64,000 bases of DNA from an uncultured Gammaproteobacteria bacterium (GTDB lineage Bacteria; Patescibacteriota; Microgenomatia; UBA8517): contig CAZIMC010000001.1 in assembly GCA_964540475.1 (NCBI GenBank), positions 97,203 through 161,202 of the forward strand, given 5' to 3'. The first letter of the stretch is position 1. Every line of letters begins with the position of its first letter. This document shows, in pieces, positions 1 through 22,944 of this stretch. Position numbers and translations under genes: made by a program. The notes under the pieces are model-generated. The model made no database searches and was not told the origin of the DNA. It saw only the letters and a list, made by a program, of their open reading frames with translations.

Positions 1-2310
1 ACTGATACGCCACACGAGAAATTACGAGAGTTTGAAGCTATGGTGGATATTTTATCGTATGCCAACGAGCTCATTAACGATTTAAAACCCAGTATAAAGA
101 TCGATTGTGTAAAAGCTGTCCATTTTATTCTTCAAGACGAAGATAAAAACACAATTCAGCAGGAAATGACCTCTCTTCAAGAAGATATAAATTTCGTCAA
201 GGAGAGTTCTAAAAAATACCCCAAGAACTTTGATAAGTTAGGAATTCGACTTACAGATTTAAAGACACTCACAGAAAACAATCTTACAAGATTAGGCGAT
301 TTGGATTTCAATAGTCTAGTTCGATATGTAACTTTGAAGCAGAAACTAGAAAAAGAATTTCAAAGGATTCCTGAGCTGAATTACAGCCAAGCTAAAAAAG
401 ATATAGAAGAGCTGGTTACAACTCAAATGACTTACATTATGGACGGTCGATTGGTCAACTTTTATGACCAAAGCAGGAGTGATGCAAAAACATTAAGAGA
501 TATTATTAGAAAGAAACAAAGATTTCCAAAAGACGAATTTCTCAAGTTGAAAGAGGCTTTTCCCTGCATTTTGGCTGGAATTAGGGATTATGCAGAATAT
601 ATTCCACTCGAACCTGAAATTTTTGATTTAGTTGTCATTGATGAAGCTTCACAAGTAAGTATAGCCCAGGCATTTCCGGCACTGCTTCGAGCAAAAAAGG
701 TGTTGATTTTAGGAGATAAACGGCAATTCAGCAACGTCAAATCAGCACAGGTACGTACAGCCACTAATAGAGAGTATCTTAACGACCTCGAGAGAGTATT
801 CAAAGACAGTGTATCTACAGACCAGGCAAAGCTCTCAAGGCTTTCTAAATTCAACATTAAAACTTCAATTTTGGAATTTTTCGAATTTATCAGCAATTAT
901 CACACCCAACTACTAAAACATTTCCGGGGGTATAAAGAAACCATATCGTACTCCAACAGGTATTTTTACCAAAATAACTTGCAGGTAATGAAAATTCGAG
1001 GGAAAAACATCGATGATGTTTTGAAGTTTTCGTTCATTAAACACGATGGAAAAGAAGATCTTTATCCGAATACAAACTCCTTGGAGGGAGAGTTTATTAT
1101 CAATGAACTAAAAAAACTTAAGGAAGTTGATAGCAATTCTAGTGTATGCATAATCACACCGCACACTAACCAGCAAAAATTACTAATGGAGATGATAAGT
1201 AAGTTGCCAGAAAGAGATTTCTTCTTTGATAAACTCCAGTTGAAAATCATGACATTCGATACTTGTCAGGGCGAAGAAAGGGATATTGTCTTCTATTCGA
1301 TGGTCGCCACAGAAAATTCCGACAGACTTTGGGGTGTGTTCATTAAAGACTTAAGTCAAGTAGACATTGAGGAAGATGGGCAGATAAAAGCCCAACGCCT
1401 CAACGTTGGCTTTAGCCGAGCAAAGGAGCGTATGCACTTTGTCTTAAGTAAACCACTTGATAAATTCTCAGGTTCTGTAGGTGAAGCTCTTAGACATTAT
1501 TACAACGCTTTAGAAGAAGGTAAAAAGGAACCTTTACCAAATGAGGTTGATCCAAATTCACCTAAAGAAAAGGAGGTATTAAATTGGATCACACAGACTA
1601 CGTTTTGGCAGGATAACTTTCCTGAAAATTTAATGCTTAAGCCTCAATTCGAACTTGGAAAGTATCTTAAGCAACTCGATAAGACGTATACCTATCCCAA
1701 TTACAAGGTGGATTTCCTTCTGGTCTACAAAGATCCAAGACACAATACCCATAAAATTATCATTGAATACGACGGTTTTGAAGAACATTTTAGAAATATC
1801 GATGAAGTAAATGAATATAACTACACCGAATATTACTCAGACGACGACGTTTATCGTCAAAAGGTACTAGAGAGTTATGGCTATAAATTCTTGAGAATTA
1901 ATAGATTTAATTCAGGAGAAGACCCCATTCAAACAATCAATACCAGGATTGAGAATCTTGTCAAAAATTACAGCGCTAGCCATAAACGCCTAAGTCGAAT
2001 CTATGAAACAATAGAAAATTTACAAAACGGACAGATGAAGGAGTGTCCGAAATGTAATGAAGTTAGATCCGCCGAAGATTTCAAAGACTCATCGCTTATT
2101 ACCGGGTATGGCAGATTTTGCAAGTACTGTAAAGGTAATATCTCATATTCAGAGTTAAGAAGTTCTTTGTCAGACAATACAGACTTAGAGAGTGACGACA
2201 AAACATGTCCGCGATGTAATTCAAAAATGATACTGAGAAGCGGCAGATACGGAAAGTTTTATGGGTGTTCCCGATTCCCTTATTGTAGAGGGACTCGTCA
2301 ATACAACTAA
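1..2310 (+). CDS. 5'-truncated SF1 (Upf1/Dna2-like) DNA helicase C-terminal half fused to a DUF559/Vsr-like endonuclease domain and a C-terminal C4 zinc ribbon (topoisomerase-type)
   Basis: Frame is open from nt 1 with no upstream stop; listed ORF 40..2310. Helicase motifs: DEASQ (motif II), TFDTCQGEERDIV, LNVGFSRAKERMHFV (motif VI). DUF559-like block KIIIEYDGFEEHF...YGYKFLRINRF. Terminal CPRCNSKMILRSGRYGKFYGCSRFPYC zinc ribbon. Confidence 0.75.
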   Translation, partial: TDTPHEKLREFEAMVDILSYANELINDLKPSIKIDCVKAVHFILQDEDKNTIQQEMTSLQEDINFVKESSKKYPKNFDKLGIRLTDLKTLTENNLTRLGDLDFNSLVRYVTLKQKLEKEFQRIPELNYSQAKKDIEELVTTQMTYIMDGRLVNFYDQSRSDAKTLRDIIRKKQRFPKDEFLKLKEAFPCILAGIRDYAEYIPLEPEIFDLVVIDEASQVSIAQAFPALLRAKKVLILGDKRQFSNVKSAQVRTATNREYLNDLERVFKDSVSTDQAKLSRLSKFNIKTSILEFFEFISNYHTQLLKHFRGYKETISYSNRYFYQNNLQVMKIRGKNIDDVLKFSFIKHDGKEDLYPNTNSLEGEFIINELKKLKEVDSNSSVCIITPHTNQQKLLMEMISKLPERDFFFDKLQLKIMTFDTCQGEERDIVFYSMVATENSDRLWGVFIKDLSQVDIEEDGQIKAQRLNVGFSRAKERMHFVLSKPLDKFSGSVGEALRHYYNALEEGKKEPLPNEVDPNSPKEKEVLNWITQTTFWQDNFPENLMLKPQFELGKYLKQLDKTYTYPNYKVDFLLVYKDPRHNTHKIIIEYDGFEEHFRNIDEVNEYNYTEYYSDDDVYRQKVLESYGYKFLRINRFNSGEDPIQTINTRIENLVKNYSASHKRLSRIYETIENLQNGQMKECPKCNEVRSAEDFKDSSLITGYGRFCKYCKGNISYSELRSSLSDNTDLESDDKTCPRCNSKMILRSGRYGKFYGCSRFPYCRGTRQYN

Positions 2311-2314
2311 GAAT

Positions 2315-3355
2315 ATGGATAACCAAGACTATAAATGCCCTTTATGCGGTAGTTTGTTGACCAGAGATCGTTGGGTAAAGATAACGGGTCGATGGTCAGA
2401 ATTTGAGAAAGAGCGGGAAGAAAACAAAAAGCTACTTGAGAGATATAAAAAAGAGAAGGCCGAAAGGGAGAAGAAATATAAGATGGAACTAAAAAAGGCT
2501 GCGAAACTAGCAGAAGCTACGGGAATGGCGAAGGGAATAAAAAAGGAAAAAAGCGAAAGAGATAGAATGGGCAAAATGCTTCAAAATCAAGCAAAAGCAA
2601 TTATTGCTAGCAATAAAAAAATTCAAGAATTACAAAAACAACTTAAAGAGGGAAAAACGCCACAAACAGCAGGCTTCGATTATGAAAAGGAGGTAGTAAG
2701 GATTTTATCTGAGAATTTTCCAGACGATATTTTAAAACCCACAGGCAAAGAGGGCGATGTAATTCAACACGTTACTTATAACAATAATCAGGTTGGCTGC
2801 ATTCTATATGAATGTAAAAAAACCGATAAGTTTAATAACTCCTTTATTAGAGAAGTATTAAAGCACCAAGATACTGCTCGAGCCGAGTTTGCAGTAATCG
2901 TTACTCATGCATTGAAGGAAGGAAAATCTAAGTTTTTTATAGAGGAAAACGTCATTGTTATAGATCCACTGGGCCTTCTAGATGTAGCCTCGCTTTTAAG
3001 GAGTTCACTACTAGAGATGCACAGACTTAAGTTAACCAAAGAAGAGGTAAAGGAAAAGGGTGTCCAAATTTTACGCTATATGCAGTCAGGTGAATTTAGA
3101 AATAACATGGTCGATACGATTGAGAAATCAAGAAAGGCATACGAACTTTTAGTGAAAGAGGTGAAAGATCACGAAAAGGCTTGGACTGAAAGGATTAAGC
3201 TATATTATTCAATTCACGAAAACATACAAGGAGTTAGGAGGTCAATTGGTGAAATAGTTACAGGAGGAGCAGTCGAATTAGAAGGGTATAACTTTGTTCA
3301 GCTAACAGGTTCAGAATTACCTAAACTATTGAGCGGTGAAAGAACTACGCAATAA
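2315..3355 (+). CDS. DUF2130-like protein: N-terminal CxxC, long K/E-rich coiled coil, C-terminal PD-(D/E)xK nuclease-like core
   Basis: ORF 2261..3355; ATG at 2315 lies 4 nt after the upstream stop. CPLCGS motif, KE-rich coiled coil, GDVIQHV...ILYECKKT (D...E.K) nuclease-like signature. Confidence 0.55.
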   Translation: MDNQDYKCPLCGSLLTRDRWVKITGRWSEFEKEREENKKLLERYKKEKAEREKKYKMELKKAAKLAEATGMAKGIKKEKSERDRMGKMLQNQAKAIIASNKKIQELQKQLKEGKTPQTAGFDYEKEVVRILSENFPDDILKPTGKEGDVIQHVTYNNNQVGCILYECKKTDKFNNSFIREVLKHQDTARAEFAVIVTHALKEGKSKFFIEENVIVIDPLGLLDVASLLRSSLLEMHRLKLTKEEVKEKGVQILRYMQSGEFRNNMVDTIEKSRKAYELLVKEVKDHEKAWTERIKLYYSIHENIQGVRRSIGEIVTGGAVELEGYNFVQLTGSELPKLLSGERTTQ

Positions 3356-3427
3356 AGATATAAAAGTAATATTTGAAAAGTTTTTGGCCTTCTGTGGGAT
3401 TGGGCTTACAACTAATAAAAATGCTCT

Positions 3428-4777
3428 ATGCAAAACAGAGACGATATAAAAAACCAGCAAACTCTTAGTAGAATTGATGACTACTTAAAATCTAATAAGA
3501 ATGACAAAGGCCAAACTTTATCAAAGGATGAAATTGAGGCGTTGCGGTTTGGTAGAAGATTGATTGCCGAGCAGTTAGAAATACCCAGCTATGAAGTCCA
3601 CTGGTCTGACGGTACTACAAAATCTACAAAGATTAGCTTTAAAGACCAAATGGTTCGAATTATCCCTGAGTCCGAGGACGAAATATACGGACAGTATTAC
3701 CACTCTCCTGATAAAAAATACTTTGTTGTCACAAAAGGCAGTTTTTGGACGGACTATGGAAAAACGGAAAAATTCACTAAGGGATGGGTGTTTCTTTTTG
3801 AGGGCAATACAAAATGCCTTTGGAAAAAAGAGTTTATCGCACCTGATAAGGCATATGTAAATAACAATGGCAATGTTGTTGTAATTGACTCACTTAATAC
3901 TGATTATGGCAAGAAGTACACAAGTGGCCTTTTTATTGTTGATAAGACAAACAAAGATATTTTCACCCGTCTGTTTACTTCTATCTTAGACAAGGTCTTA
4001 TACTCGCAAAAAAGAAACGAATTGTTATGTCTAACAAACAATCCGGAGAGAGCGTTTTTTCTTGTCGATCTTGCTACCCAGAAAGTTATTTATAAAGCAA
4101 AATTGAAGCGGGCATTTGAAAAGTGGTATTTAGAAAATGCCAATTATTCATTTAAAGATGACCATATCAATATCTGGAATGAAGATTTGTTTGAACATAT
4201 CCGAACTAGATTGCAAGAGGAGGAGGACATAAAAACGCCATCAGACGATCAGGCAGAACATTTAGAGCATATACAAGTCGAGACTGAGAGAACTACTGAA
4301 GAATATGAGCGAGAGCAATTTTTGGAAATCTATACTAAACCTGAGTTCAGCATTTTTGAAGAGTATGAAATATTAAAATGTGAGAAAGAGGGAAAAGAAT
4401 TCGAAGGCTTGGTATCTGAATACTACTTTGATTATCTTCACTCTATGGGTATTTCCACGATGGACGATTTGCTCAATACAGATATCACGGTGCTTATCAA
4501 CAGGACTGGCGATGGACTCAGACCAGGACCAGGAAGAATATACGGCATCAATAATAGGGTCTCAAGTGAACTTGGAAGACAGCTTAAAGGAATCGAAGAT
4601 TATATTCCTGTATCACCAAGAATAAGAACAGAACTCGAAAAGATTGGTGTTAACAAACTTGGTGATTGTGCTAACTTCTCCAGAAGCGAACTATTAAAAA
4701 TTAAAGGTATAGGTGTAAAAGTGTTGGAATACATATCAAGTGCATTGCAAGAATTTCACCAGAACGAAATAAAATAA
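3428..4777 (+). CDS. hypothetical protein with C-terminal helix-hairpin-helix repeats (RNAP alpha-CTD-like)
   Basis: 449-aa ORF; C-terminal SELLKIKGIGVKVLEYI and DDLLNTDITVLINRTG HhH-like motifs; no other recognisable domain. Confidence 0.5.
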   Translation: MQNRDDIKNQQTLSRIDDYLKSNKNDKGQTLSKDEIEALRFGRRLIAEQLEIPSYEVHWSDGTTKSTKISFKDQMVRIIPESEDEIYGQYYHSPDKKYFVVTKGSFWTDYGKTEKFTKGWVFLFEGNTKCLWKKEFIAPDKAYVNNNGNVVVIDSLNTDYGKKYTSGLFIVDKTNKDIFTRLFTSILDKVLYSQKRNELLCLTNNPERAFFLVDLATQKVIYKAKLKRAFEKWYLENANYSFKDDHINIWNEDLFEHIRTRLQEEEDIKTPSDDQAEHLEHIQVETERTTEEYEREQFLEIYTKPEFSIFEEYEILKCEKEGKEFEGLVSEYYFDYLHSMGISTMDDLLNTDITVLINRTGDGLRPGPGRIYGINNRVSSELGRQLKGIEDYIPVSPRIRTELEKIGVNKLGDCANFSRSELLKIKGIGVKVLEYISSALQEFHQNEIK

Positions 4778-4788
4778 TCAGAAAAGAA

Positions 4789-4826
4789 GGTCAGTAGTAT
4801 TACCGACCCTCTTTTTCTTGCCGAGC
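4789..4826. terminator. putative bidirectional rho-independent terminator between convergent genes
   Basis: Imperfect stem GGTCAGT / ACCGACC followed by CTCTTTTTCTT, between 3428..4777 (+) and 4827..5060 (-). Confidence 0.3.
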
Positions 4827-5060
4827 TTATTTTTTACTCTTTACCACTTCTTTAGCAGGTTCTTTCGTTATTTCAGGCTTTACTACTTCCTCTGAAATTT
4901 TCTGTTTTGCTGCCGCTAATTTCTCTTTTCTCTTTAGCATGTAGCGTGCTCGTGCTGCTTTGCCCTTCACCGACTCCTGATAGCGTTTGCGGGCTTCTTT
5001 ACCCCTGGCAGACCTGGCGTATTTCTTTTGTGCTTGTGTCCATTTTCCCATTGTCATCAC
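4827..5060 (-). CDS. small highly basic Lys/Arg-rich protein, function unknown
   Basis: 77-aa ORF, KR-rich (KKYARSARGKEARKRY...). Sits just downstream of the XRE gene on the same strand. Confidence 0.4.
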   Translation of the reverse strand: MMTMGKWTQAQKKYARSARGKEARKRYQESVKGKAARARYMLKRKEKLAAAKQKISEEVVKPEITKEPAKEVVKSKK

Positions 5061-5125
5061 CTCCTAACGGACTATCCTGATATATTTATTATCAAGACCC
5101 TACTGGAAGAAGGCACTCCGGCAAT

Positions 5126-5323
5126 TTATGTATGCTTACTGATGTACCGCCTCAAAGCTCTGCGTAAATCTTTCTTACAGCGGATACTGGGATTGACCCT
5201 GCTTGTTTCTATGAGTGAAATATATGTCTGGGTGTATCCTGAGAGTTTTGCCAGCCTTTGTTGGCTTACAAACACGCCTTCGTTAACTCGCGTTTGGTAT
5301 AGGTAGTTTGCAAAATCGACCAT
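5126..5323 (-). CDS. XRE-family helix-turn-helix transcriptional regulator
   Basis: HTH_3-like SQQRLAKLSGYTQTYISLIETSRVNPS. Start taken at MVDF; ORF listed to 5335. Confidence 0.65.
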   Translation of the reverse strand: MVDFANYLYQTRVNEGVFVSQQRLAKLSGYTQTYISLIETSRVNPSIRCKKDLRRALRRYISKHT

Positions 5324-5867
5324 TGGTAGCCTCAATTACCTGATATTTGGATTCGGAATCCAATAACTCCTTCAAAACCTCTAACTGAACCTTGACCTGT
5401 GCGACTAAATCTCTAGGGAATAACTGGTAAAGAACATTCGGCGAGCTATGGAGCAGAGTTGGATTTTGATTCCACAATAGTTCTATTTGGGGCGCTGCAT
5501 CAGTCTCTTTTGCATGTTCGAACATTGCAGAAATAGTAGGCTCTTTCTTTTTAGCTTCTTCGATAAATTGAACAGGACTTTCGTCATCCACACGCACAAT
5601 TTTGTCTTGTAAAATTAAGTTCGAACATATACCTTGCAGTATTGATCTTTTCTGTAGCTTATCTCCATGTTCAAACCAATGTCTTGCATAACAAGCAAAG
5701 TTGAATGTGTTTTCAGTAAGTTCTACCCATTTACTAATCCTTCGATCTGTATCATTGAGCTTCTCCCTTTTTAGTACCCAGGAGTGATACAATAGAAGGT
5801 AATCGGCTGCCCATCGTGCAGCCTTTTTTTGTATGAGTAAATACAGAGCAGTAGGCAGTAAACTCAA
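5283..5867 (-). CDS. hypothetical protein, upstream of and overlapping the XRE gene
   Basis: 194-aa ORF with no recognisable motif. Same strand as the XRE gene with a 41-bp overlap, suggesting co-transcription. Confidence 0.45.
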   Translation of the reverse strand: MSLLPTALYLLIQKKAARWAADYLLLYHSWVLKREKLNDTDRRISKWVELTENTFNFACYARHWFEHGDKLQKRSILQGICSNLILQDKIVRVDDESPVQFIEEAKKKEPTISAMFEHAKETDAAPQIELLWNQNPTLLHSSPNVLYQLFPRDLVAQVKVQLEVLKELLDSESKYQVIEATNGRFCKLPIPNAS

Positions 5868-6582
5868 GAACGAATCCGATCCTTCTCTTGCAAAGGAACA
5901 TAAGGCTGGGGCTGTCGTTGAATTAGTTCAACCAGCTAAGGATGATCGCTGGGGCAGATACTACTTCAATCACTATCAGCGTTATTGGAATATCCTGAAC
6001 GAATCTCGAAGACACTACAATAGAGCTCTTATTTATCTTAAAAAATGTCGTCAGTTGCCAGTCGATACAAAAACTCAAAATCGACATGTACCTGAAGAAC
6101 TAAGAGACAAACTTGAAATGCACTCAATGAAATATCTTGTCCTCCTGAAGATGGGGTATGAATATATGACTCTGGAGATGTTGCCATCAATAGATCATAT
6201 ACAAGAAGCAAAACAAGGTATAGCAAAGACAGATTGGGATAAGGTTGATCTATTGAAAAGAATAAGCTCATTGAAGAGCAAATTGTCCATAAGCAAAGAC
6301 GTCCCTGACTGTCTCTTCCCACTTTTTGATCGAAGAGACATTGTTGAACACCCTAATCAAGAGCGCTTATACAATGCTACCGCTAATGGCTGGAAAAATA
6401 ATCATTTAGCATGGGTTTTAAGTGGTGATATGGAAGGGACAATGGAAAAGATTGTTGATTTTACAAGCGAAATAATCAAAGTGTTTGATGAATATGTAAA
6501 AAATAATCCCATTCCTGGAACATTGGAAGGAGTAGTAAGGGGATTAAAAGCATCCGAGTCATATAAAAATCCTAAAAAATAA
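5833..6582 (+). CDS. hypothetical protein, first gene of a tight three-gene operon
   Basis: 249-aa ORF; diverges from the 5283..5867 gene with a 35-bp overlap; next gene starts 3 bp after its stop. Confidence 0.5.
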   Translation: MSKYRAVGSKLKNESDPSLAKEHKAGAVVELVQPAKDDRWGRYYFNHYQRYWNILNESRRHYNRALIYLKKCRQLPVDTKTQNRHVPEELRDKLEMHSMKYLVLLKMGYEYMTLEMLPSIDHIQEAKQGIAKTDWDKVDLLKRISSLKSKLSISKDVPDCLFPLFDRRDIVEHPNQERLYNATANGWKNNHLAWVLSGDMEGTMEKIVDFTSEIIKVFDEYVKNNPIPGTLEGVVRGLKASESYKNPKK

Positions 6583-6584
6583 AC

Positions 6585-7103
6585 ATGAACAACTCTAATC
6601 TTAGATATATCAATACTGCATTAGAAGGAGCTAAGTATCACGAAGATCAAGCATTTCAAGTAAGAGGTAATCAACCAAATGATTACAATAAAATTGTTTT
6701 TCATCTGAGGGCATATTTTTGGGAGCTTTGGTCTGCCTGGGATTATGTACTGCAGGAAACCAACAGGCAAACCTTTCATTTAGAGCCACATGAGGTACGC
6801 AGAAATATCCTAAATAAAGTTAGGAAAGAAGTTCCTGACTATAAATTTCTCGAACTGCTCGAATCCATTCAGGAAAATGAAAGATTAAAAAGAATTATGT
6901 GGTTGCGTGACCATGCTCACAAATGGCAAATTGAGCCATATATGATTGACCATGATGATGAAAAAGTAAATGTCATTGCCTTAAATAATCTTGATTCACG
7001 AGATAAGTTTTTAGATAGGCAAATTAACATAGATAGAAATGATTTATATTTTATGCAAGAGTTCATAAACACACTTTCGAAGGAAGGTTTTTTTGAAGCA
7101 TGA
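6585..7103 (+). CDS. hypothetical protein with N-terminal LxxAKYH motif (paralogue of next gene's N-terminus)
   Basis: 172 aa; INTALEGAKYHEDQAF resembles LKKLERAKYHLNIL in the next ORF; 4-bp overlap with the next gene. Confidence 0.5.
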   Translation: MNNSNLRYINTALEGAKYHEDQAFQVRGNQPNDYNKIVFHLRAYFWELWSAWDYVLQETNRQTFHLEPHEVRRNILNKVRKEVPDYKFLELLESIQENERLKRIMWLRDHAHKWQIEPYMIDHDDEKVNVIALNNLDSRDKFLDRQINIDRNDLYFMQEFINTLSKEGFFEA

Positions 7104-7864
7104 ACTCCTTAAAAAAACTTGAAAGAGCAAAGTATCACCTCAATATACTTACTCAGGAAGTAAAAGAATTTATTCAAAGCCAACCATACAAAATTTACAC
7201 TACCGAAGAAGCTAATGGAGATCTGGTTTACAGATTGAAAATTATTAAGCCTGTTCCAGAAGAGTGGAGTTTAACAATTGGAGACATAATACATAATCTT
7301 CGTTCATCCCTGGATCTTCTGATTTCAGATCTCCTGATAAAGAATGGGAAACAACCTGATAATAGAAGTGCGTTTCCAATTTATGAAACTGAGACAGAAT
7401 TGTTAAAAGATTCTCAACACAGAATTACTGGAATAACTCCAGCAGCTCGAAAAGTCATTTCCAAGATTAAACCATACAAGGGAGGAAACCAGATACTTTG
7501 GAAGCTACATAAACTTGATATTCTTGATAAACATAAACTAATTATTCCTGTAGGATCTGCATCGAGAAGTGTAGGTATTGATTTTAATTCCTTATTGCAC
7601 ACTCAAGGATTTTCAAAAGATTTAAAGTTACCCCCAATTTTTATTAGACCTGCTGACACACAATTTCCATTAAAAGATGGTATGGGATTATTTTCTATAT
7701 TAAAACAGGCTCGGACAGGAGGTGAGCCACCTCCCCATTCGTTTGCTTTTGATATTGCATTTGGTGAAGGAGATTTAGTAATGGGCGAGCCTATTATAGA
7801 AACATTAAATTTGTTTGTTATAGAAGTAGAGAGTATATTAAATAAGTTCAAAAAATTACTGTAG
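7100..7864 (+). CDS. hypothetical protein with N-terminal LxxAKYH motif
   Basis: 254 aa; ATGA overlap with the upstream gene. Confidence 0.5.
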   Translation: MNSLKKLERAKYHLNILTQEVKEFIQSQPYKIYTTEEANGDLVYRLKIIKPVPEEWSLTIGDIIHNLRSSLDLLISDLLIKNGKQPDNRSAFPIYETETELLKDSQHRITGITPAARKVISKIKPYKGGNQILWKLHKLDILDKHKLIIPVGSASRSVGIDFNSLLHTQGFSKDLKLPPIFIRPADTQFPLKDGMGLFSILKQARTGGEPPPHSFAFDIAFGEGDLVMGEPIIETLNLFVIEVESILNKFKKLL

Positions 7865-8107
7865 TTTGTGGAGAGATAAGGAATCCTATTATTTCTTTGT
7901 TTGCCTGGAAACACATACCCCCTCCAGTATCATGATAAACTCATGAGGTTTACATGAGCTTCTACAGTAGGTAATACTGGGATGCTTACATAATCTTTGG
8001 TGGTGGTGTAATATGTTCGCATCTGCTCCATGAGGGAGAGCAAGGTTTTTTAGCTTCATTTTTCCTCCTTACCACAAGGTATTTTCGAACTTTGGTAAAA
8101 TTTTGAT

Positions 8108-9279: not shown

Positions 9280-9699
9280 ATGGCTGAACTAAAAACAAAA
9301 CCTACTAAAGGAAATGTTGAGGACTTTTTAGATTCAATAGCGCCAGAACAAAAACGTCTAGATGGTTATGTCTTGCTTCAAATGTTTAAAGAAATAACAG
9401 GTGAAAAACCGGTAATGTGGGGAAATAGTATAGTCGGGTTTGGTAAGTATCATTATAAGTCAGAAAGAAGCAAGCAAGAAGGAGATTGGCCCCTTTCTGC
9501 ATTCTCCCCCCGCAAGCAAAGCTTGTCCCTCTACATCATGGCAGAAAATGAGAAGTTTAAAAAATTACTTAATAAACTTGGTAAGCACAAAACCGGAGTT
9601 GGGTGCTTATATATAAATAAACTCTCGGATATTGACATAAATGTACTTAAAGCATTAATAAAAGTGTCATATGTGCACTCAAAAAGATCTCTAACCTAA
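9280..9699 (+). CDS. DUF1801 (YdhG-like) domain protein
   Basis: N-terminal VEDFLDSIAPEQKRLDGYVLLQMFKEITG pattern typical of DUF1801. Confidence 0.6.
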   Translation: MAELKTKPTKGNVEDFLDSIAPEQKRLDGYVLLQMFKEITGEKPVMWGNSIVGFGKYHYKSERSKQEGDWPLSAFSPRKQSLSLYIMAENEKFKKLLNKLGKHKTGVGCLYINKLSDIDINVLKALIKVSYVHSKRSLT

Positions 9700-9919
9700 A
9701 ATCACACACCGGGCGCAAAAATGACAATAGAATTCAGAACCCAGCCAAATACTCCCGAAAAGCCCAAAAGCCCCGCGCCCACAAAACCAGTTTTACCCCC
9801 CAGAAAACCAGAAGCTTCTAAAAAACATATCCGCCGAAGCGGAAAGTAATCTTTCTTTGCCATTTGTCAATTTGATTTAATAAATTGATGGTCGCCGGCC
9901 TAAATGTTACAATTTCAAA

Positions 9920-10453
9920 ATGGTAGAAAGAATAACCCAGCTTTCCCACAATTATGCTTTAGATAACTTTTTTAGATTGCGCTATGGAGTAGAAGGCGCA
10001 AATACCCTAATGCCTTGCGAGCCCATCAACGATCCACATCTCGTTCTTGGAATTATTGACAATAACAATGTTAACCCCAGAAGGCTACTTCTTTTAGACA
10101 AAGATTTGGCACCAATCCGTGTAACTTCCCCCGAGACCGGCAAAGACCATGCATTGGCACTGCCTGGAAAGTCCGCATTCATCTGTTTTACCAATGAAGA
10201 GTGCGAAGAGGATATTGTCAGAGAAATGGTAGCCAGCAACTTAGCATGCGAACCAAACAGGAGGCACCACCTTCATCTTGCTACAGTTGCAAAAATAAAA
10301 ACCGCCGGTTGGACCCCATTTTGGGCTCCATTACAGCTTAAAGGAAATGTCTTGCATGTGAGAATGGTTGCGCAAAGAACAATTGACACACTAGCTCACC
10401 CTACCATTGATGACGCTCAAAGGCTTGCAGAAGCGTTTACCAAAGTTGCCTAA
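9920..10453 (+). CDS. hypothetical protein
   Basis: 177-aa ORF with no recognisable motif; slightly GC-richer local composition. Confidence 0.4.
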   Translation: MVERITQLSHNYALDNFFRLRYGVEGANTLMPCEPINDPHLVLGIIDNNNVNPRRLLLLDKDLAPIRVTSPETGKDHALALPGKSAFICFTNEECEEDIVREMVASNLACEPNRRHHLHLATVAKIKTAGWTPFWAPLQLKGNVLHVRMVAQRTIDTLAHPTIDDAQRLAEAFTKVA

Positions 10454-10492
10454 CCGGCAAGGAATGCCCCCAACACCTCAAGCGTCTCCCTT

Positions 10493-10693
10493 TTACTGCG
10501 CTGGAGTGTTCACATTAACATCCACTTCTCGCGGGATGTTAATATTTGTTCCTCCGCCAAACCCCCCGCCTCTACCAAAGTAAAACAGTAGTAAAAACAA
10601 AGCTATCAAAAGCACCACGCCAATAGCTAAATTTGTACCACCAGATGGACTGGTTTCTCTATGCTCTCTTATTACATCTGCCACATTTCTCAC
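10493..10693 (-). CDS. small Gly-rich membrane protein
   Basis: 66 aa; one TM helix (LAIGVVLLIALFLLLFYF) followed by GRGGGFGGG. Confidence 0.35.
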   Translation of the reverse strand: MRNVADVIREHRETSPSGGTNLAIGVVLLIALFLLLFYFGRGGGFGGGTNINIPREVDVNVNTPAQ

Positions 10694-10697
10694 CCCC

Positions 10698-10955
10698 TTA
10701 AGGTGTCATATCTACCTGTATTTGTGCTGGAACTGCCGCACCATTCATATTAAAGGTATTAACCGCTCTTTTAACCACTGGTGTCCCGTAATATGCGAGT
10801 GCCGCCATTAGTGCTATCAATACAATTGCCCCCAGCAGTGTCTCCGCCCTTCTTTGAGCCTGAACTGCCCTAACATTCTCTAAAGTATCCATCATAAATA
10901 TCACCCCCTTGACTTCGCTTAAGATCATTGACCTTTCTTTAAGCACTATAAGCAC
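10698..10955 (-). CDS. small membrane protein
   Basis: 85 aa, one TM helix; 5 bp upstream of the previous small gene on the same strand. Confidence 0.35.
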   Translation of the reverse strand: MLIVLKERSMILSEVKGVIFMMDTLENVRAVQAQRRAETLLGAIVLIALMAALAYYGTPVVKRAVNTFNMNGAAVPAQIQVDMTP

Positions 10956-11041
10956 GAGGCAAAAGAATTTGATAAATATTGTTTAAAGAAATTGTAAGAA
11001 AGCGTGGCTTTGGGGTCAGATATACAGTAAGAGGCCCGCCC

Positions 11042-11314
11042 TTACTCCTCAATGAATATCTCGTCAATATAGCACCACTTCCAGCTCTCCCCTGGCTCGT
11101 GTGATCTAATTACAGGGTGGTTGGTTGATTTAAAATGCTTAGTGGCATGCTTATTTTTAGATTGATCACAGCAGCCAACATGTCCACAACTAAGACACAT
11201 GCGTAGATGAACCCATTCATCCCCTGTTTTAAGACATTCTTCGCACCCCGACGCGCTTGGAGTAACGTTCTTGATTTGATCCAGGTGCTCACAATTTTGA
11301 ACAGAAGCTTTCAT
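11042..11314 (-). CDS. UBP-type zinc finger (zf-UBP) domain protein
   Basis: CEHL...CEECLK...WVHLRMCLSCGHVGCCD...HATKHF...NHP matches the Znf-UBP Cys/His pattern. Confidence 0.65.
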   Translation of the reverse strand: MKASVQNCEHLDQIKNVTPSASGCEECLKTGDEWVHLRMCLSCGHVGCCDQSKNKHATKHFKSTNHPVIRSHEPGESWKWCYIDEIFIEE

Positions 11315-19196: not shown

Positions 19197-19276
19197 GGGG
19201 TGAGGGAGGGATTCGTGTGCACAGTTGATTCTCACCTTGGCACTATCGAATACCGCACTCAACGCGAGTCTGCGAG
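19197..19276 (-). repeat. tRNA-3'-end direct-repeat module downstream of tRNA-Ser(GGA): 17-bp copy of the tRNA 3' end plus a conserved insert
   Basis: GGTGAGGGAGGGATTCG at 19199..19215 repeats 19278..19294 (tRNA 3' end). Insert carries CTTGGCACTATC and TGTGCACA and is near-identical to the module at 20286..20367. Confidence 0.7.
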
Positions 19277-19363
19277 CGGTGAGGGAGGGATTCGAACCCT
19301 CGGTAACCTTGCGGCTACACACGATCTCCAATCGTGCTCTTTAGACCACTCAGACACCTCACC
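19277..19363 (-). tRNA. tRNA-Ser (anticodon GGA), class II with long variable arm
   Basis: Reverse complement folds as GGTGAGG acceptor, 3-bp D stem, anticodon stem CACGA/TCGTG with loop TTGGAGA, long variable arm, T arm GAGGGTTCGAATCCCTC. Confidence 0.85.
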
Positions 19364-19377
19364 AGAGCTAAATTATA

Positions 19378-19896
19378 TCAAAGTTGATGGGATTTAAGCT
19401 CCAATATCTCTTTTGCCTTTTTTAAAATCTCTTTATCACCCTTAAATGTTAGTTTTGTCAAAGCTTTCTTTAATGGGAAGAATTTGGCTTGCCGGACCTC
19501 TTTGTCGTGATTATTAGTATCTCCGCCGGCATACTTCATCAAATAAAATGTGACGATTTTGAATATCTTTGCACCATCCCAGTGAAAAAAATATTTCTGG
19601 TCGGCAATCTTTTCAATTAAACTTGCTCTCACTCCACACTCCTCCGCTACTTCACGAACAGCGGTAGCCTTTGATGATTCGCCGGGGTCGATATGTCCCT
19701 TGGGAAACTGCCACCGATCGGTTCCTGCAGGATTAATAAGCAACCACTCCATTTTGGCACTGTCAGGGCTTTTTCTGAAAACAATCCCTCCAGCCGAGAA
19801 CTCTCGTTTAAGCGGGGAGCTCGGGTTCTTCCTCTTTTTTGTTTCTTGGGGATTTCTCCCAGATTTTGAGTACTTCTTTTGCATTTTTGAAAACAT
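19378..19896 (-). CDS. Nudix hydrolase
   Basis: Nudix box GHIDPGESSKATAVREVAEECG. The N-terminal K-rich extension may not be translated; overlaps the upstream Nudix gene. Confidence 0.75.
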   Translation of the reverse strand: MFSKMQKKYSKSGRNPQETKKRKNPSSPLKREFSAGGIVFRKSPDSAKMEWLLINPAGTDRWQFPKGHIDPGESSKATAVREVAEECGVRASLIEKIADQKYFFHWDGAKIFKIVTFYLMKYAGGDTNNHDKEVRQAKFFPLKKALTKLTFKGDKEILKKAKEILELKSHQL

Positions 19897-20269
19897 CCTT
19901 TTCTCGCTTTAAATGGACCGCACTACGAGCGCGGCTTAACTCCATCCATTTATAATCGCTAAATCCCAAGACTTCGCCGCCCGCTCGTTGCATCATAAGA
20001 TAATAGTAAAATTTCTGTGAGACCGTTCTACCATTAACTATGGCAGAACCAGTGGTTCTAAATGCCTCTTCCAAAACCCGTGCATTCATTCCGGCCATTT
20101 CACCGGTCATTCTTAAAGCTGCCCTAATGGAGGATTCCCCTCTTCTGACTGTCACTTTGGGTATTTCCCACTTTGCATCATCAGAGATTTTAACCACCAA
20201 AAAGGTCTTTTTCCCATTATTTTCTTTAAAAACCACTGCTCCACTTATAACTATTTGGTTATTTTTCAT
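19808..20269 (-). CDS. Nudix hydrolase
   Basis: Nudix box RRGESSIRAALRMTGEMAG. Start taken at MKNNQ (ATG complement at 20267..20269) because the listed ORF extends through the tRNA and repeat. Confidence 0.75.
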   Translation of the reverse strand: MKNNQIVISGAVVFKENNGKKTFLVVKISDDAKWEIPKVTVRRGESSIRAALRMTGEMAGMNARVLEEAFRTTGSAIVNGRTVSQKFYYYLMMQRAGGEVLGFSDYKWMELSRARSAVHLKREKDVFKNAKEVLKIWEKSPRNKKEEEPELPA

Positions 20270-20285
20270 ATTTATGTTTTCTTCT

Positions 20286-20367
20286 CGTGCGGTGAGGGTG
20301 GGATTCGTGTGCACAACTTCTCTTTGCTTGGCACTATCGAATACCACACTCAACGCGAGTCCATGTG
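20286..20367 (-). repeat. tRNA-3'-end direct-repeat module downstream of tRNA-Ser(TGA): 20-bp copy of the tRNA 3' end plus a conserved insert
   Basis: TGCGGTGAGGGTGGGATTCG at 20288..20307 repeats 20366..20385. Insert shares CTTGGCACTATCGAATACCRCACTCAACGCGAGTC and TGTGCACA with the 19197 module. Confidence 0.7.
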
Positions 20368-20456
20368 CGGTGAGGGTGGGATTCGAACCCACGGTAACGA
20401 AAATTCGCTACGTCGGTTTTCAAAACCGATGCACTAGTCCGCTATGCGACCTCACC
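20368..20456 (-). tRNA. tRNA-Ser (anticodon TGA), class II
   Basis: Reverse complement GGTGAGGTCGCATAGCGGACTAGTGCATCGGTTTTGAAAACCGACG...GGGTTCGAATCCCACCCTCACCG. Anticodon stem TCGGT/ACCGA, loop TTTGAAA. Confidence 0.85.
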
Positions 20457-20506
20457 GAGTCTGCGAGGTGAGTAGCACAAGCTTGCCTTATGCGACCTCA
20501 CCCCAA
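20443..20506 (-). repeat. 14-bp direct duplication of the tRNA-Ser(TGA) 5' end, 50 bp upstream of the gene
   Basis: TATGCGACCTCACC at 20443..20456 (tRNA 5' end, plus-strand view) and again at 20493..20506. The intervening GAGTCTGCGAG also occurs at 19267..19277. Confidence 0.6.
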
Positions 20507-20529
20507 TCTACCATTGCCGCACCTTAGAG

Positions 20530-20618
20530 CGGTAGGGACAGGATTCGAACCTGCGCGAGGGGTATTAACCCTCAAGGGTTTAGCAAACCCTCGCCTTAGA
20601 CCGCTCGGCCACCCTACC
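20530..20618 (-). tRNA. tRNA-Ser (anticodon GCT), class II
   Basis: Reverse complement GGTAGGGTGGCCGAGCGGTCTAAGGCGAGGGTTTGCTAAACCCT...GCAGGTTCGAATCCTGTCCCTACCG. Anticodon stem AGGGT/ACCCT, loop TTGCTAA. Confidence 0.85.
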
Positions 20619-20630
20619 ACAAGCGTGCAT

Positions 20631-20668
20631 ATTATACCAGAATCACCGGTTGGAACGAAGCCTTAATT
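20631..20668 (-). promoter_or_regulatory. putative sigma-70 promoter (extended -10 TGGTATAAT) for the minus-strand tRNA-Ser(GCT)/(TGA) genes
   Basis: Minus-strand TTCGTT, 17-nt spacer, TGGTATAAT, ending about 12 nt before the tRNA 5' end. Confidence 0.35.
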
Positions 20669-20680
20669 TGGGATATAATA

Positions 20681-21226
20681 ATGCGTAGCATGCCCGAGGA
20701 CTTAAGTGAGAGCACATTAAAAGAAAATGTTGTTGAGCCTATTGCAAAAACCGAGCCTGAGACTGATCTAGTTGTTTGGGTAGCGCCAGCTCGACCCTTC
20801 AAAAGGCGTAACAGACAGTTTTATGTCACCTTAATTGCCACAGCCTCGATAGTGGGGCTAGTGCTGTTCTTTGTAGAAGGATGGGTACCGGTTGTTCTTA
20901 TTATTTCTTTAATTTTTTTGTTTTATGTAATGTCAACGGTCCCCCCGGAAGATATCGAGTATAAAATTACCAATAAAGGCATAAAAATTGCAGGCAGAAG
21001 ATCAGATTGGGAAACCCTCGGCAGGTTCTGGTTTAGCAGAAGATTTGACACCAGGCTCTTGGTTATAGAGACTTATACAATTCCAGGCAGAATCGAACTG
21101 GTAATTGAGCCTTATAAAAATGAGGAGATCCAGAGCGCAATCGCTAAGTTTTTGGTGCATGAAGAAATTCCACCTTCAAACCTGGATAAGGCCGCGGTTT
21201 GGTTTGCTAAAAAACTCCCTCAATAA
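20681..21226 (+). CDS. hypothetical membrane protein (two TM helices)
   Basis: 181-aa ORF with TM stretch VTLIATASIVGLVLFFVEGWVPVVLIISLIFLFYVM. Confidence 0.45.
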   Translation: MRSMPEDLSESTLKENVVEPIAKTEPETDLVVWVAPARPFKRRNRQFYVTLIATASIVGLVLFFVEGWVPVVLIISLIFLFYVMSTVPPEDIEYKITNKGIKIAGRRSDWETLGRFWFSRRFDTRLLVIETYTIPGRIELVIEPYKNEEIQSAIAKFLVHEEIPPSNLDKAAVWFAKKLPQ

Positions 21227-21229
21227 AAA

Positions 21230-21301
21230 GCGCTCGTAGCTTAATGGATAGAGTGGCGGCTTGCGGAGCCGTTGATCCCAGTTCGAGTCTGGGCGAGCGC
21301 A
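21230..21301 (+). tRNA. tRNA-Arg (anticodon read as GCG)
   Basis: GCGCTCGTAGCTTAATGGATAGAGT...TTCGAGTCTGGGCGAGCGCA. D arm resembles bacterial tRNA-Arg; anticodon stem GCGGC/GCCGT, loop TTGCGGA. Confidence 0.75.
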
Positions 21302-21306
21302 CACAC

Positions 21307-21391
21307 GGTGGGGTGCCGGAGTGGCCAAACGGGATGGTTTCGAAAACCATATCGGTTTTCCGATACGCGAGTTCGAATCTCGCCTCCACCG
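21307..21391 (+). tRNA. tRNA-Ser (anticodon CGA), class II
   Basis: GGTGGGGTGCCGGAGTGGCCAAACGGGATGGTTTCGAAAACCAT...GCGAGTTCGAATCTCGCCTCCACCG. Anticodon stem ATGGT/ACCAT, loop TTCGAAA. Confidence 0.85.
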
Positions 21392-21447
21392 CCGCACAGG
21401 TCGCAATTTGCTTAAAGCAAATTTGGCATGCATTCTATACCCTCCGC

Positions 21448-22125
21448 CTACCTCACTACGGCTAATCCCCAAACTCGTTTTGCTCCCGCCCGTTTTAAAA
21501 CCTTTGCTGCCTCTTTAAGAGTTGAGCCAGTTGTAAAAACATCATCGAATATGATGTAGTCGGTAGATTGTAGTTTGTAGGTAGAATTAAGAGAAAACAC
21601 ATTTTTGACGTTTACTCTCCTTTCTTCCGCCATTACTTCGGTTTGCGATGGGGTAATTTTTTTCTTTATTAATAAATCCGGTATAAACTTGATCTTTAAA
21701 AAACCGGAAACTTCTCTTCCTAAAAACTCCGACTGATTAAAACCTCTCCAGTTTTGTCTTAAATACTGCAGTGGTATCGATGTTAAAACTTCAAAATCTT
21801 TCAAAACAGATGTGCTCGGGTGCCCACCAAGCGCCTTAAGTGTCAAGTTTATAATTTCCTCACCCACTTGCTTTGCAAACTTGTACTTTAAACTTATAAT
21901 TGCCCGCTTTAAAACCCCCTCATAATTCCAAAGACAACTTAGTCCATCAAGGCCAAATTTACGTTTACATTTATAATGTGTCATTCCGTCAATACTTGCA
22001 TTTTCGCAATAAGGACAAACCTGCTTGGCTGCCCGAACTTTTTCTAAGCAAACTAAGCATATGTATCTCCCCACCGCACCGCAACCTAGACATTTTTTGG
22101 GAAATAAAAGATCCAAAGCGTCCAT
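21448..22125 (-). CDS. comFC: ComF-family phosphoribosyltransferase-domain protein (ComFC-like)
   Basis: N-terminal double CxxC zinc ribbon (CLGCG...CLVCL...CPYC); C-terminal PRTase motif IIFDDVFTTGSTLKEAAKVL. Confidence 0.75.
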   Translation of the reverse strand: MDALDLLFPKKCLGCGAVGRYICLVCLEKVRAAKQVCPYCENASIDGMTHYKCKRKFGLDGLSCLWNYEGVLKRAIISLKYKFAKQVGEEIINLTLKALGGHPSTSVLKDFEVLTSIPLQYLRQNWRGFNQSEFLGREVSGFLKIKFIPDLLIKKKITPSQTEVMAEERRVNVKNVFSLNSTYKLQSTDYIIFDDVFTTGSTLKEAAKVLKRAGAKRVWGLAVVR

Positions 22126-22145
22126 TGGGGTACAATATTAAGTAT

Positions 22146-22574
22146 ATGAGAATATTTAACAAACGTGCTAGATATCTTTATCAAATCCAAGAGGCAGAAA
22201 TCGAGGCAGGTCTTGTGCTAACAGGGGCAGAGGCTAAGTCTTTGCGTGAAGGAAGAGGTGATTTAAGTCAGGCACATATTAGGTTAATTGCAGACGGACT
22301 TTATCTTATAAACGCCAATGTTCCAACAAATAATCCCCAAAACCCACCCACACGCATGAGGAAGCTGCTTTTAAATAAGCATGAAATTGTTTCTCTGACA
22401 ACCAAAATGAAGCAGCAAAAATTGATTCTCGTGCCTCTTGCGGTGTATAATAGAGGCCGGCTATTTAAGCTCGAAGTGGGTTTGGGTAAACCCAAAAGAA
22501 AGTTTGAAAAGCGCGAGTATTTAAAGGAAAAAGATTTAAAGCGCGATATCCAAAAAGAGCTTAAATTGCGATGA
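22146..22574 (+). CDS. smpB: SsrA-binding protein SmpB
   Basis: NKRARYLYQIQEAEIEAGLVLTGAEAKSLR...LLLNKHEI...KLEVGLGKPKRKFEKRE. tmRNA lies immediately downstream. Confidence 0.9.
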   Translation: MRIFNKRARYLYQIQEAEIEAGLVLTGAEAKSLREGRGDLSQAHIRLIADGLYLINANVPTNNPQNPPTRMRKLLLNKHEIVSLTTKMKQQKLILVPLAVYNRGRLFKLEVGLGKPKRKFEKREYLKEKDLKRDIQKELKLR

Positions 22575-22575
22575 T

Positions 22576-22944
22576 GGGGGCGACCGGTTTCGACGGAATG
22601 TACTTTAACAAACTGCAAGCCGAGTTTGATTCAAACTCGTAAAACAGAATCAAAACCTTAAGCGTCAATACAAAAAACGCTCCAGCTTATGCTGGCGTAA
22701 GCAATTACGCTTTCGCCTAAGCGGTGTCTTCTATTTCGCATCCTGATCGAATTAGAAAGGCATAAACCAATCGGGATCGGTTTTTGGTTGCTGGTTGTAG
22801 GCCCGAAACTTAAATACAACTAACCTTACTTTTTGGTTTCCAGTTAATCGGTTAGCCTTAAAGGAAATTGCTGGATTAACTAAGCTTGTAGTAGTTTTCT
22901 AAAGGAATTTTCGGATGAGGGTTCAATTCCCTCCGCCTCCACTC
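22576..22944 (+). ncRNA. ssrA: tmRNA (ssrA)
   Basis: 5' GGGGGCGACCGGTTTCGACGG and 3' GGTTCAATTCCCTCCGCCTCCA can form a tRNA-like acceptor. Internal tag-like reading frame ends ...NYAFA-stop. Directly follows smpB. Confidence 0.85.

Follow-up and report, generated by a model that had tools for sequence, protein, structure and literature searches.

Three genes stand head to tail at the edge of a bacterial genome fragment, and their arrangement raises the question of whether they form a single defence system or only happen to be neighbours. The stretch of DNA analysed here (the window) comprises 64,000 nucleotides (nt) of contig CAZIMC010000001.1 from an uncultured bacterium of the Patescibacteriota. 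Its first 4,777 nt carry a helicase-nuclease gene that is cut by the window edge, a gene for a protein of the DUF2130 family (open reading frame 2, ORF2) and a third gene (ORF3). A preliminary description of the sequence had taken the three for one defence-like module. We consider it probable, though some way from certain, that the locus is the edge of a genomic island that carries a stand-alone helicase-nuclease, a separate DUF2130 nuclease of a kind found at restriction and defence loci, and an unrelated orphan.

Co-occurrence of the three genes

Among the helicase and DUF2130 loci surveyed, none except the window was found to hold all three genes. A DUF2130 gene stands next to the helicase in three of 14 independent loci (the window, L009 and L018; loci are designated by L numbers) and is missing at the other 11 (L001, L002/3, L004, L005, L045, L046, L047, L052, L055-58, L059 and L060). 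The reverse count was taken from 34 metagenome loci of DUF2130, all neighbours of which were clustered and then named; the helicase lies upstream in two of them, L009 and L018, with a 6-nt gap in each. ORF3 is rare, with three close homologues besides its own copy among 5.8 billion clusters and 33 relatives among 1.84 billion representatives in an exhaustive search, and at the two homologous loci that could be read (L042, L043) neither the helicase nor DUF2130 is present. In the window itself, all three genes share one strand, ORF2 begins 4 nt past the helicase stop codon, 72 nt separate ORF2 from ORF3, and no terminator-like site was found on the plus strand between 2310 and 4777. A hairpin beyond ORF3 is likely a bidirectional terminator that closes the plus-strand transcription unit. 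Since no terminator separates the three genes and the hairpin stands only after ORF3, co-transcription is plausible here, and the helicase, ORF2 and ORF3 are probably co-transcribed in this window. As support for one conserved defence module of all three genes, this arrangement is contradicted by the co-occurrence counts, and we find such a module scarcely credible. The genes lie together here and do not make up one conserved three-gene system; the three-gene 'system' is not real, and cataloguing it as such is unwarranted.

While the trio is never co-localised elsewhere, the pair of helicase and DUF2130 recurs, but as a minority arrangement. A neighbour-joining tree of DUF2130 puts the loci that have the helicase into two clades apart from each other, one with the window and L009 and the other with L018, and loci with LexA, described below, turn up in every clade; in a tree of the helicases, that of L018 falls in with that of L001, a locus without DUF2130. 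An explanation that is unlikely, and yet deserves to be taken seriously, is that helicase-nuclease and DUF2130 constitute a facultative two-gene system with ORF3 outside it, in which the motor would sense or unwind invader DNA and DUF2130 would be a second effector or a processing nuclease. Such a system would agree with the constant gene order and the gap of 4-6 nt in the window, L009 and L018, across both DUF2130 clades, and also with other translocases that directly precede DUF2130, namely a type I HsdR (L012) and a DEAD/DEAH helicase of ~1,950 residues in Chryseobacterium balustinum. It is difficult to reconcile with the 11 helicase loci that lack DUF2130 and with the 32 of 34 DUF2130 loci that lack the helicase; moreover, DUF2130 adjoins LexA and restriction S subunits equally tightly, and the helicase of L018 groups with a relative that has no DUF2130 beside it.

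Table 1. Coordinates of features at the start of the window (AF2, AlphaFold2; Cys, cysteine)
Feature	Position (nt)	Strand	Basis
Helicase-nuclease, C-terminal 769 aa of ~1,520 aa	1-2310	+	ORF open to base 1; homologues are single ORFs
RecA1 part of SF1B core, AAA_11, residues 80-243	238-729	+	Pfam, 2.9e-8
RecA2 part, AAA_12, residues 300-481	898-1443	+	Pfam, 1.1e-17
Vsr/DUF559-type restriction-endonuclease-fold domain, MTES_1575, residues 561-647	1681-1941	+	Pfam, invariants
First C4 zinc ribbon, C682, C685, C707, C710	2044-2130	+	All four Cys invariant
Second C4 zinc ribbon, topoisomerase-I type, residues 734-767	2200-2301	+	Zn_ribbon_Top1
DUF2130 protein (ORF2), 346 aa	2315-3355	+	Pfam DUF2130, invariant motif, AF2 model
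N-terminal CPLC knuckle of ORF2	2336-2347	+	Invariant
85-residue helix of ORF2	2393-2647	+	AF2 model
PD-(D/E)xK core of ORF2, D148, E166, K168	2660-3025	+	Invariants, AF2
Orphan protein (ORF3), 449 aa	3428-4777	+	Pfam, homologue searches
N-domain of ORF3, weakly beta-propeller-like, residues ~63-271	3614-4240	+	Weak matches
Hairpin, 15-bp stem, between ORF3 and convergent 77-aa ORF	4782-4815	.	Terminator scan

Domain organisation of the helicase-nuclease

Reading frame 1 is open from the first base of the window to a TAA at 2308-2310 (770 codons), and the first gene is therefore truncated by the window edge. Full-length homologues occur as single ORFs of 1515-1536 residues in L005, L009, L018, L045, L046 and L047, and L006 has a continuous frame of 1476 residues followed by a shift near the C-terminus. 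Because full-length homologues measure ~1,520 residues, the window must be without ~750 of them; the true protein is thus predicted to have ~1,520 residues, with ~750 N-terminal ones, Walker A included, outside the window. In the full-length proteins an N-terminal part of ~450 residues without Pfam match precedes Walker A near residue 470 and an insert of ~350 residues, after which the remaining motor, the nuclease domain and two zinc ribbons follow.

The motor belongs to superfamily 1 (SF1). Its RecA1 part holds motif II, DEASQ (nt 640-654), and motif III, GDKRQ, and its RecA2 part motif V (TFDTCQGEE) and motif VI (QRLNVGxSR). All four motifs are invariant in an alignment of 36 sequences, including D214-Q218, G238, D239 and Q242, and so are D571, E589, D591 and H596 of the nuclease domain, its putative catalytic residues as judged by conservation, and the eight cysteines of the two zinc ribbons. 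On the helicase fragment the MTES_1575 match has an E-value of 1.7e-4, below the Pfam gathering score; when the nuclease segments of 15 family members were scanned alone, MTES_1575 was matched in all 15 (best 1.3e-6), DUF559 in eight and DUF2726 in five. Vsr, DUF559 and DUF2726 form one group, MTES_1575 included, in a survey of the PD-(D/E)XK superfamily (PMC3424549). The second ribbon was matched by Zn_ribbon_Top1 (Pfam 2.6e-12) and by topoisomerase I in the PDB (5e-7), and an NCBIfam topoisomerase I/SWI fusion model covers residues 681-765 of the fragment. A profile search of the PDB with the helicase matched Upf1/NAM7, DNA2, IGHMBP2 and topoisomerase I ribbons. No informative PDB match came from sequence searches with individual proteins, nor from a profile built on the nuclease segment. 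The AF2 model of the nuclease domain has a predicted local distance difference test score (pLDDT) of 81, and its best Foldseek matches, TnsA, BstEII, AgeI, VRR-NUC and 3hrl, are all weak (E >= 0.017). The preliminary description had recognised an Upf1/Dna2-type SF1 core, a DUF559/Vsr-like nuclease and a topoisomerase-type C4 zinc ribbon and had placed the N-terminus of the helicase outside the window, all of which the profile searches, invariant residues and homologues bear out; of the Pfam families it had named for comparison, AAA_11, AAA_12 and DUF2130 were matched in the window, and DUF559 in the eight nuclease segments just mentioned.

Comparison with known defence systems

In domain order the protein resembles Hhe, reportedly described by Gao et al. 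in 2020 as a single-gene system in which a DUF4011 helicase is combined with a Vsr endonuclease. Activity of Hhe against lambda, T3, T7 and PhiV-1 has been shown and is lost when a glutamate of its nuclease site is mutated (bioRxiv 10.1101/2022.06.16.496414). Both are large single chains in which an AAA_11/AAA_12 SF1 helicase is followed by an MTES_1575/Vsr-type nuclease, and both occur in defence islands. However, the DUF4011 N-domain was not found by Pfam (E <= 0.001) in the full-length proteins of L018, L009 and L005, the C-terminus has two zinc ribbons instead of a match to the DUF3320/winged helix-turn-helix domain, and the NCBIfam model NF042953, whose cutoff is 2000 bits, yields 66-98 bits, the PADLOC match to Hhe covering the helicase core only.

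The best model matches were PDC-S37, a PADLOC candidate, and ProA (NF058533), whose profile lengths of 1550 and 1903 are close to that of the helicase, but these best matches are limited to ~300 residues of the helicase core. PDC-S37 reaches 136-146 bits, with its best stretch at profile positions 928-1250 of 1550 and a second stretch matched as well, and ProA, which has its cutoff at 1500, reaches 91-139 bits over profile positions 1279-1567 only. Mokosh shares the Upf1-like SF1 core (PADLOC MkoC, 1e-31; MkoA was also matched), the MkoC match being confined to the core in L009 and L005 and extending over residues 278-1243 in L018, but a phospholipase D domain was not found with Pfam and there is no partner gene. 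Nhi and Hna likewise unite a helicase and a restriction-fold nuclease in one protein (PMC11232893), yet Nhi has an N-terminal HsdR-like nuclease with a DUF2075 helicase, and Hna has a superfamily 2 helicase. The Nhi-, Hachiman- and Gabija-like architectures that the preliminary description had brought up find no model support, since none of nine window proteins gave a PADLOC match to Nhi, Hna, HamA/HamB or GajA/GajB at E <= 0.01, and no PADLOC model matched ORF2 or ORF3. We found no papers on these exact families; the literature on ProA, DUF2130, Hhe/DUF4011 and MTES_1575 serves as background only. The helicase is accordingly best described as an Hhe-like single-chain helicase-nuclease that falls outside Hhe, ProA, PDC-S37 and Mokosh. 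Should it prove a defence gene, it would add a single-protein system akin to Hhe yet distinct from it, one that is widespread in the ultra-small bacteria of the candidate phyla radiation (CPR) and in several other phyla, the immune repertoires of which are poorly known.

Distribution and neighbourhoods of the helicase-nuclease

Relatives of the 769-residue fragment number in the hundreds, at 46-72% identity, and are spread over WOR-3, Dehalococcoidales, Terriglobia, Bdellovibrionales, Actinomycetota and many Patescibacteria. Several copies are disrupted: an IS21 element sits between the N-domain and the rest of the gene in L004 (4701-8001), a DDE transposase interrupts it in L060 (1290-7917), and in L055-59 it is split into two ORFs (e.g. 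L055 3630-8205; L059 4061-8526). In L001-L003 an ORF of ~250 residues overlaps the start of a helicase ORF of 1275-1281 residues; this ORF was considered as a conserved partner gene and rejected, since six other loci have it joined in frame to the helicase. The split in L001-L003 is a frame change with an overlap of 25-40 nt (L001 387-4966) and could reflect decay, sequencing error or programmed frameshifting.

The genes found beside the helicase are type I restriction-modification (RM) and GmrSD in L002; insertion sequence (IS) elements, an integrase and BrnTA in L004; a reverse transcriptase and a serine recombinase in L045; a HEPN AbiU2 protein and type I RM in L047; Prim-Pol and a decayed type I RM system in L059; and Fic in L055. 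In L046 (2-5578) the helicase directly follows a methyltransferase-like protein (931 residues, weak UPF0020 match) and a DUF499 ATPase. In the Hma system (PMC11232893) the partners are a DUF1156 methylase and a DUF499 ATPase; DUF1156 was not detected at L046. On a Priestia plasmid a homologue stands beside an operon of a Y-family polymerase ('damage repair protein') and YolD. Relatives of the helicase are thus consistently found among RM, abortive infection (Abi)/HEPN, toxin-antitoxin, reverse-transcriptase, recombinase and IS genes. By guilt by association, the patchy phyletic spread, the island context and the frequent decay together are what is usually seen in genes of defence or conflict, and the view of the preliminary description that these are no housekeeping genes agrees with the defence and mobile contexts of the helicase relatives and with the low guanine-plus-cytosine (GC) content of the region given below.

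Some of this company raises the very improbable alternative that the genes are part of a mobile element such as a prophage and work for its replication, for its recombination or to keep competing elements out. At L018, a 139-residue ORF and a gene for a terminase large subunit (Terminase_6N) follow DUF2130 (9368-11314), which places the terminase two genes past it, the helicase has a PDDEXK_1 gene (693-1370) on its upstream side, and the helicase-DUF2130 pair may stand at a prophage edge there. Three full-length helicases lie on IMG/VR contigs, with a tail-sheath-like gene near one and a serine recombinase near another. Nevertheless, 50,697 deposited phage genomes contained one match to the helicase only, of 24% identity, and no relative of DUF2130; the matches in PHROGs were generic helicase and zinc-ribbon matches only, and the first 10 kb of the window hold no phage structural genes.

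The DUF2130 protein

ORF2 was matched by Pfam DUF2130 (PF09903) with an E-value of 2.2e-23 and 83.3 bits against a cutoff of 26.7, over profile positions 6-247 of 255, and the motif D148...E166-C-K168 is invariant in 38 sequences; the DUF2130-like protein with a D...ECK signature, set off by 4 nt, was thus rightly read from the sequence. The public gene call (P0121, 364 residues) begins at the ATG at 2261, which gives it an overlap of 50 nt with the helicase, but the N-termini of 37 aligned homologues, all at MxxxxYKCPLCG, support the start at 2315 rather than 2261. Close relatives come nearly all from Patescibacteria.

The AF2 model (pLDDT 81) consists of the knuckle, the long helix, an alpha/beta core and a C-terminal helical bundle. 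In the core (H116-134, E139-142, E148-155, E158-168, H176-188, E192-197, where H is helix and E strand) the motif lies on the alpha-beta-beta-beta-alpha-beta framework of PD-(D/E)xK enzymes. The best Foldseek matches, EcoT38I, the Cap4 nuclease domain, BamHI and Hjc, are all weak (E >= 0.013). The invariant CPLC, with two cysteines only, directly precedes the 85-residue helix and may form an intermolecular zinc site like that of the Rad50 hook. RmuC, too, has a PD-(D/E)xK core behind a long N-terminal coiled coil; ORF2 differs from it in having no Pfam RmuC match and in belonging to DUF2130/COG4487, with the invariant N-terminal CPLC. RmuC and DUF2130 are both included in the superfamily survey, which places DUF2130 in the PD-(D/E)XK superfamily (PMC3424549). 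From motif and modelled fold, ORF2 is predicted to be a coiled-coil PD-(D/E)xK nuclease of RmuC-like layout, independent of the helicase.

Neighbourhoods of DUF2130 genes

LexA is the commonest neighbour of DUF2130, present in 13 of the 34 metagenome loci (~10 independent), and one neighbouring copy scores above the NCBIfam cutoff (TIGR00498, 131 bits). It is either divergent from DUF2130 across a spacer of ~55 nt, as in L015 (3131-3810), L016 and L022, or lies immediately upstream in the same operon, as in L017 (7285-8990) and L024 (1238-2894). In two groups LexA (S24 peptidase) is fused to an N6/N4 DNA methylase, giving proteins of 514-530 residues (L023, 1698-3239; L034, 5967-7556), and inspection by eye revealed palindromes of the type TTTCGAT...ATCGAAA in the spacers of LexA loci. 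Within the window neither a LexA homologue nor a second DUF2130 copy was found.

Restriction genes (type I or ISP RM) are the second commonest neighbours. The S subunit of type I systems overlaps the start of DUF2130 in L013, L014, L029 and L032/33, in L012 a type I HsdR stops 47 nt short of DUF2130, and in L017 DUF2130 is preceded by a type ISP enzyme with an SNF2 helicase; the neighbours further include a DUF6119 protein. L027 and L029 share the same DUF2130 and downstream membrane-protein genes and differ wholly upstream. DUF2130 therefore looks like a conserved gene behind a variable, defence-rich upstream slot, which the helicase fills in three loci.

The distant DUF2130 genes of plasmids (26-30% identity) keep comparable company. 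On a Chryseobacterium oryzae plasmid a WYL regulator, DUF2130 and type I RM follow one another, and on a C. balustinum plasmid the DEAD/DEAH helicase takes the place of the regulator; in Bradyrhizobium a RelE toxin and a helix-turn-helix (HTH) regulator precede DUF2130, and in Mesorhizobium DUF2130 is near ArdC and a relaxase. The type I RM operons of the Chryseobacterium plasmids (L054, 1013-9490; L063, 1-10612) have an HTH-PIN pair before hsdR. DUF2130 is without assigned function, and its company, LexA in CPR bacteria, RM loci in CPR bacteria and on plasmids of other phyla, WYL and toxin-antitoxin genes on plasmids, leads to the testable hypothesis of a damage-induced nuclease at defence hotspots. 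We regard this company as a modest new lead; DUF2130 is probably a nuclease controlled by DNA damage, and we infer control by the SOS response.

A bolder proposal, which we consider rather doubtful, is that DUF2130 is a damage-controlled accessory nuclease (through LexA in CPR bacteria, through WYL elsewhere) downstream of varied translocase-based defence systems, i.e. type I and ISP restriction, large DEAD-box helicases and the SF1 helicase-nuclease, and that the pair in the window represents an undescribed two-component defence system of CPR bacteria. The LexA genes could also be understood if both proteins took part in SOS-controlled DNA repair or recombination, the helicase in Dna2- or AddAB-like processing of ends or flaps and DUF2130 as an RmuC-like recombination nuclease. 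The adjacency of LexA in the 13 loci, the Priestia operon and the Dna2/Upf1-type core would fit this; we nonetheless judge it improbable, as the helicase is patchily distributed across phyla at 48-72% identity and often disrupted by IS elements or splits, stands in a low-GC island in the window and elsewhere amid RM, Abi, toxin-antitoxin and recombinase genes, and shows no synteny with core repair genes.

The orphan ORF3

The C-terminus of ORF3 carries one helix-hairpin-helix (HhH) unit of the RNA_pol_A_CTD/HHH_5 type (residues 393-443, nt 4604-4756; Pfam 8.3e-6; alpha-CTD in the PDB, E 0.03), so that of the tandem HhH motifs suggested previously the motif itself stands and the tandem does not. 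An acidic linker forms the middle of the protein, and the N-domain is elsewhere fused to tetratricopeptide, DnaJ or HEAT repeats. Nothing links ORF3 to nucleic-acid cleavage; it is an orphan unrelated to both other genes.

Possible modes of action and weight of the evidence

The island-edge reading, with its stand-alone helicase-nuclease, allows a mode of action to be proposed. Zinc ribbons of the topoisomerase-I type bind single-stranded DNA (ssDNA). On the analogy of Hhe, Nhi and Hna, the helicase-nuclease might use its zinc ribbons and N-domain to engage ssDNA of an invader or replication intermediates, the SF1B motor with its large insert would translocate 5'->3', and the Vsr-type domain would nick or cleave. 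The protein would most likely act alone, as a defence or anti-mobile-element gene. DUF2130 would most likely dimerise through its long helix and would cut DNA under DNA-damage control. These activities, like the defence role, we infer from domains, conserved catalytic motifs and the statistics of neighbourhoods.

Several points weigh against a stand-alone helicase-nuclease with a separate DUF2130 nuclease. The junction of the two genes is very tight in all three loci that have it (4, 6 and 6 nt), and with the pairing found in two separate DUF2130 clades, selection for the pair is possible. The PADLOC and NCBIfam matches cover the generic helicase core only, the fold searches are without statistical significance, and the adjacency of LexA as well as the polymerase/YolD operon of Priestia fit a repair role, too. 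Finally, the sample of loci is small and consists mostly of metagenome fragments.

Surrounding region

The GC content of positions 1-8000 is 35-39%, compared with 41-47% in other parts of the window, and we take the region to be the margin of a low-GC island gained by horizontal transfer. Beyond the hairpin, an ORF with an XRE-type HTH (5126-5335, minus strand) is divergent from three tightly packed plus-strand ORFs of 249, 172 and 254 residues, which stretch to 7864. The second of these encodes a Cthe_2314-like HEPN protein (Pfam E 5e-5, below the cutoff); L027 has a homologue of this protein (5748-6305), placed 1.7 kb upstream of its own DUF2130 gene. The stretch from 5126 to 7864 may be a second small conflict module of the same low-GC island. 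Not adjacent to the island, positions 19276-22944 hold four tRNA-Ser genes, one tRNA-Arg gene and a tmRNA gene (tag APAYAGVSNYAFA), a cluster which indicates that the window is chromosomal bacterial DNA.

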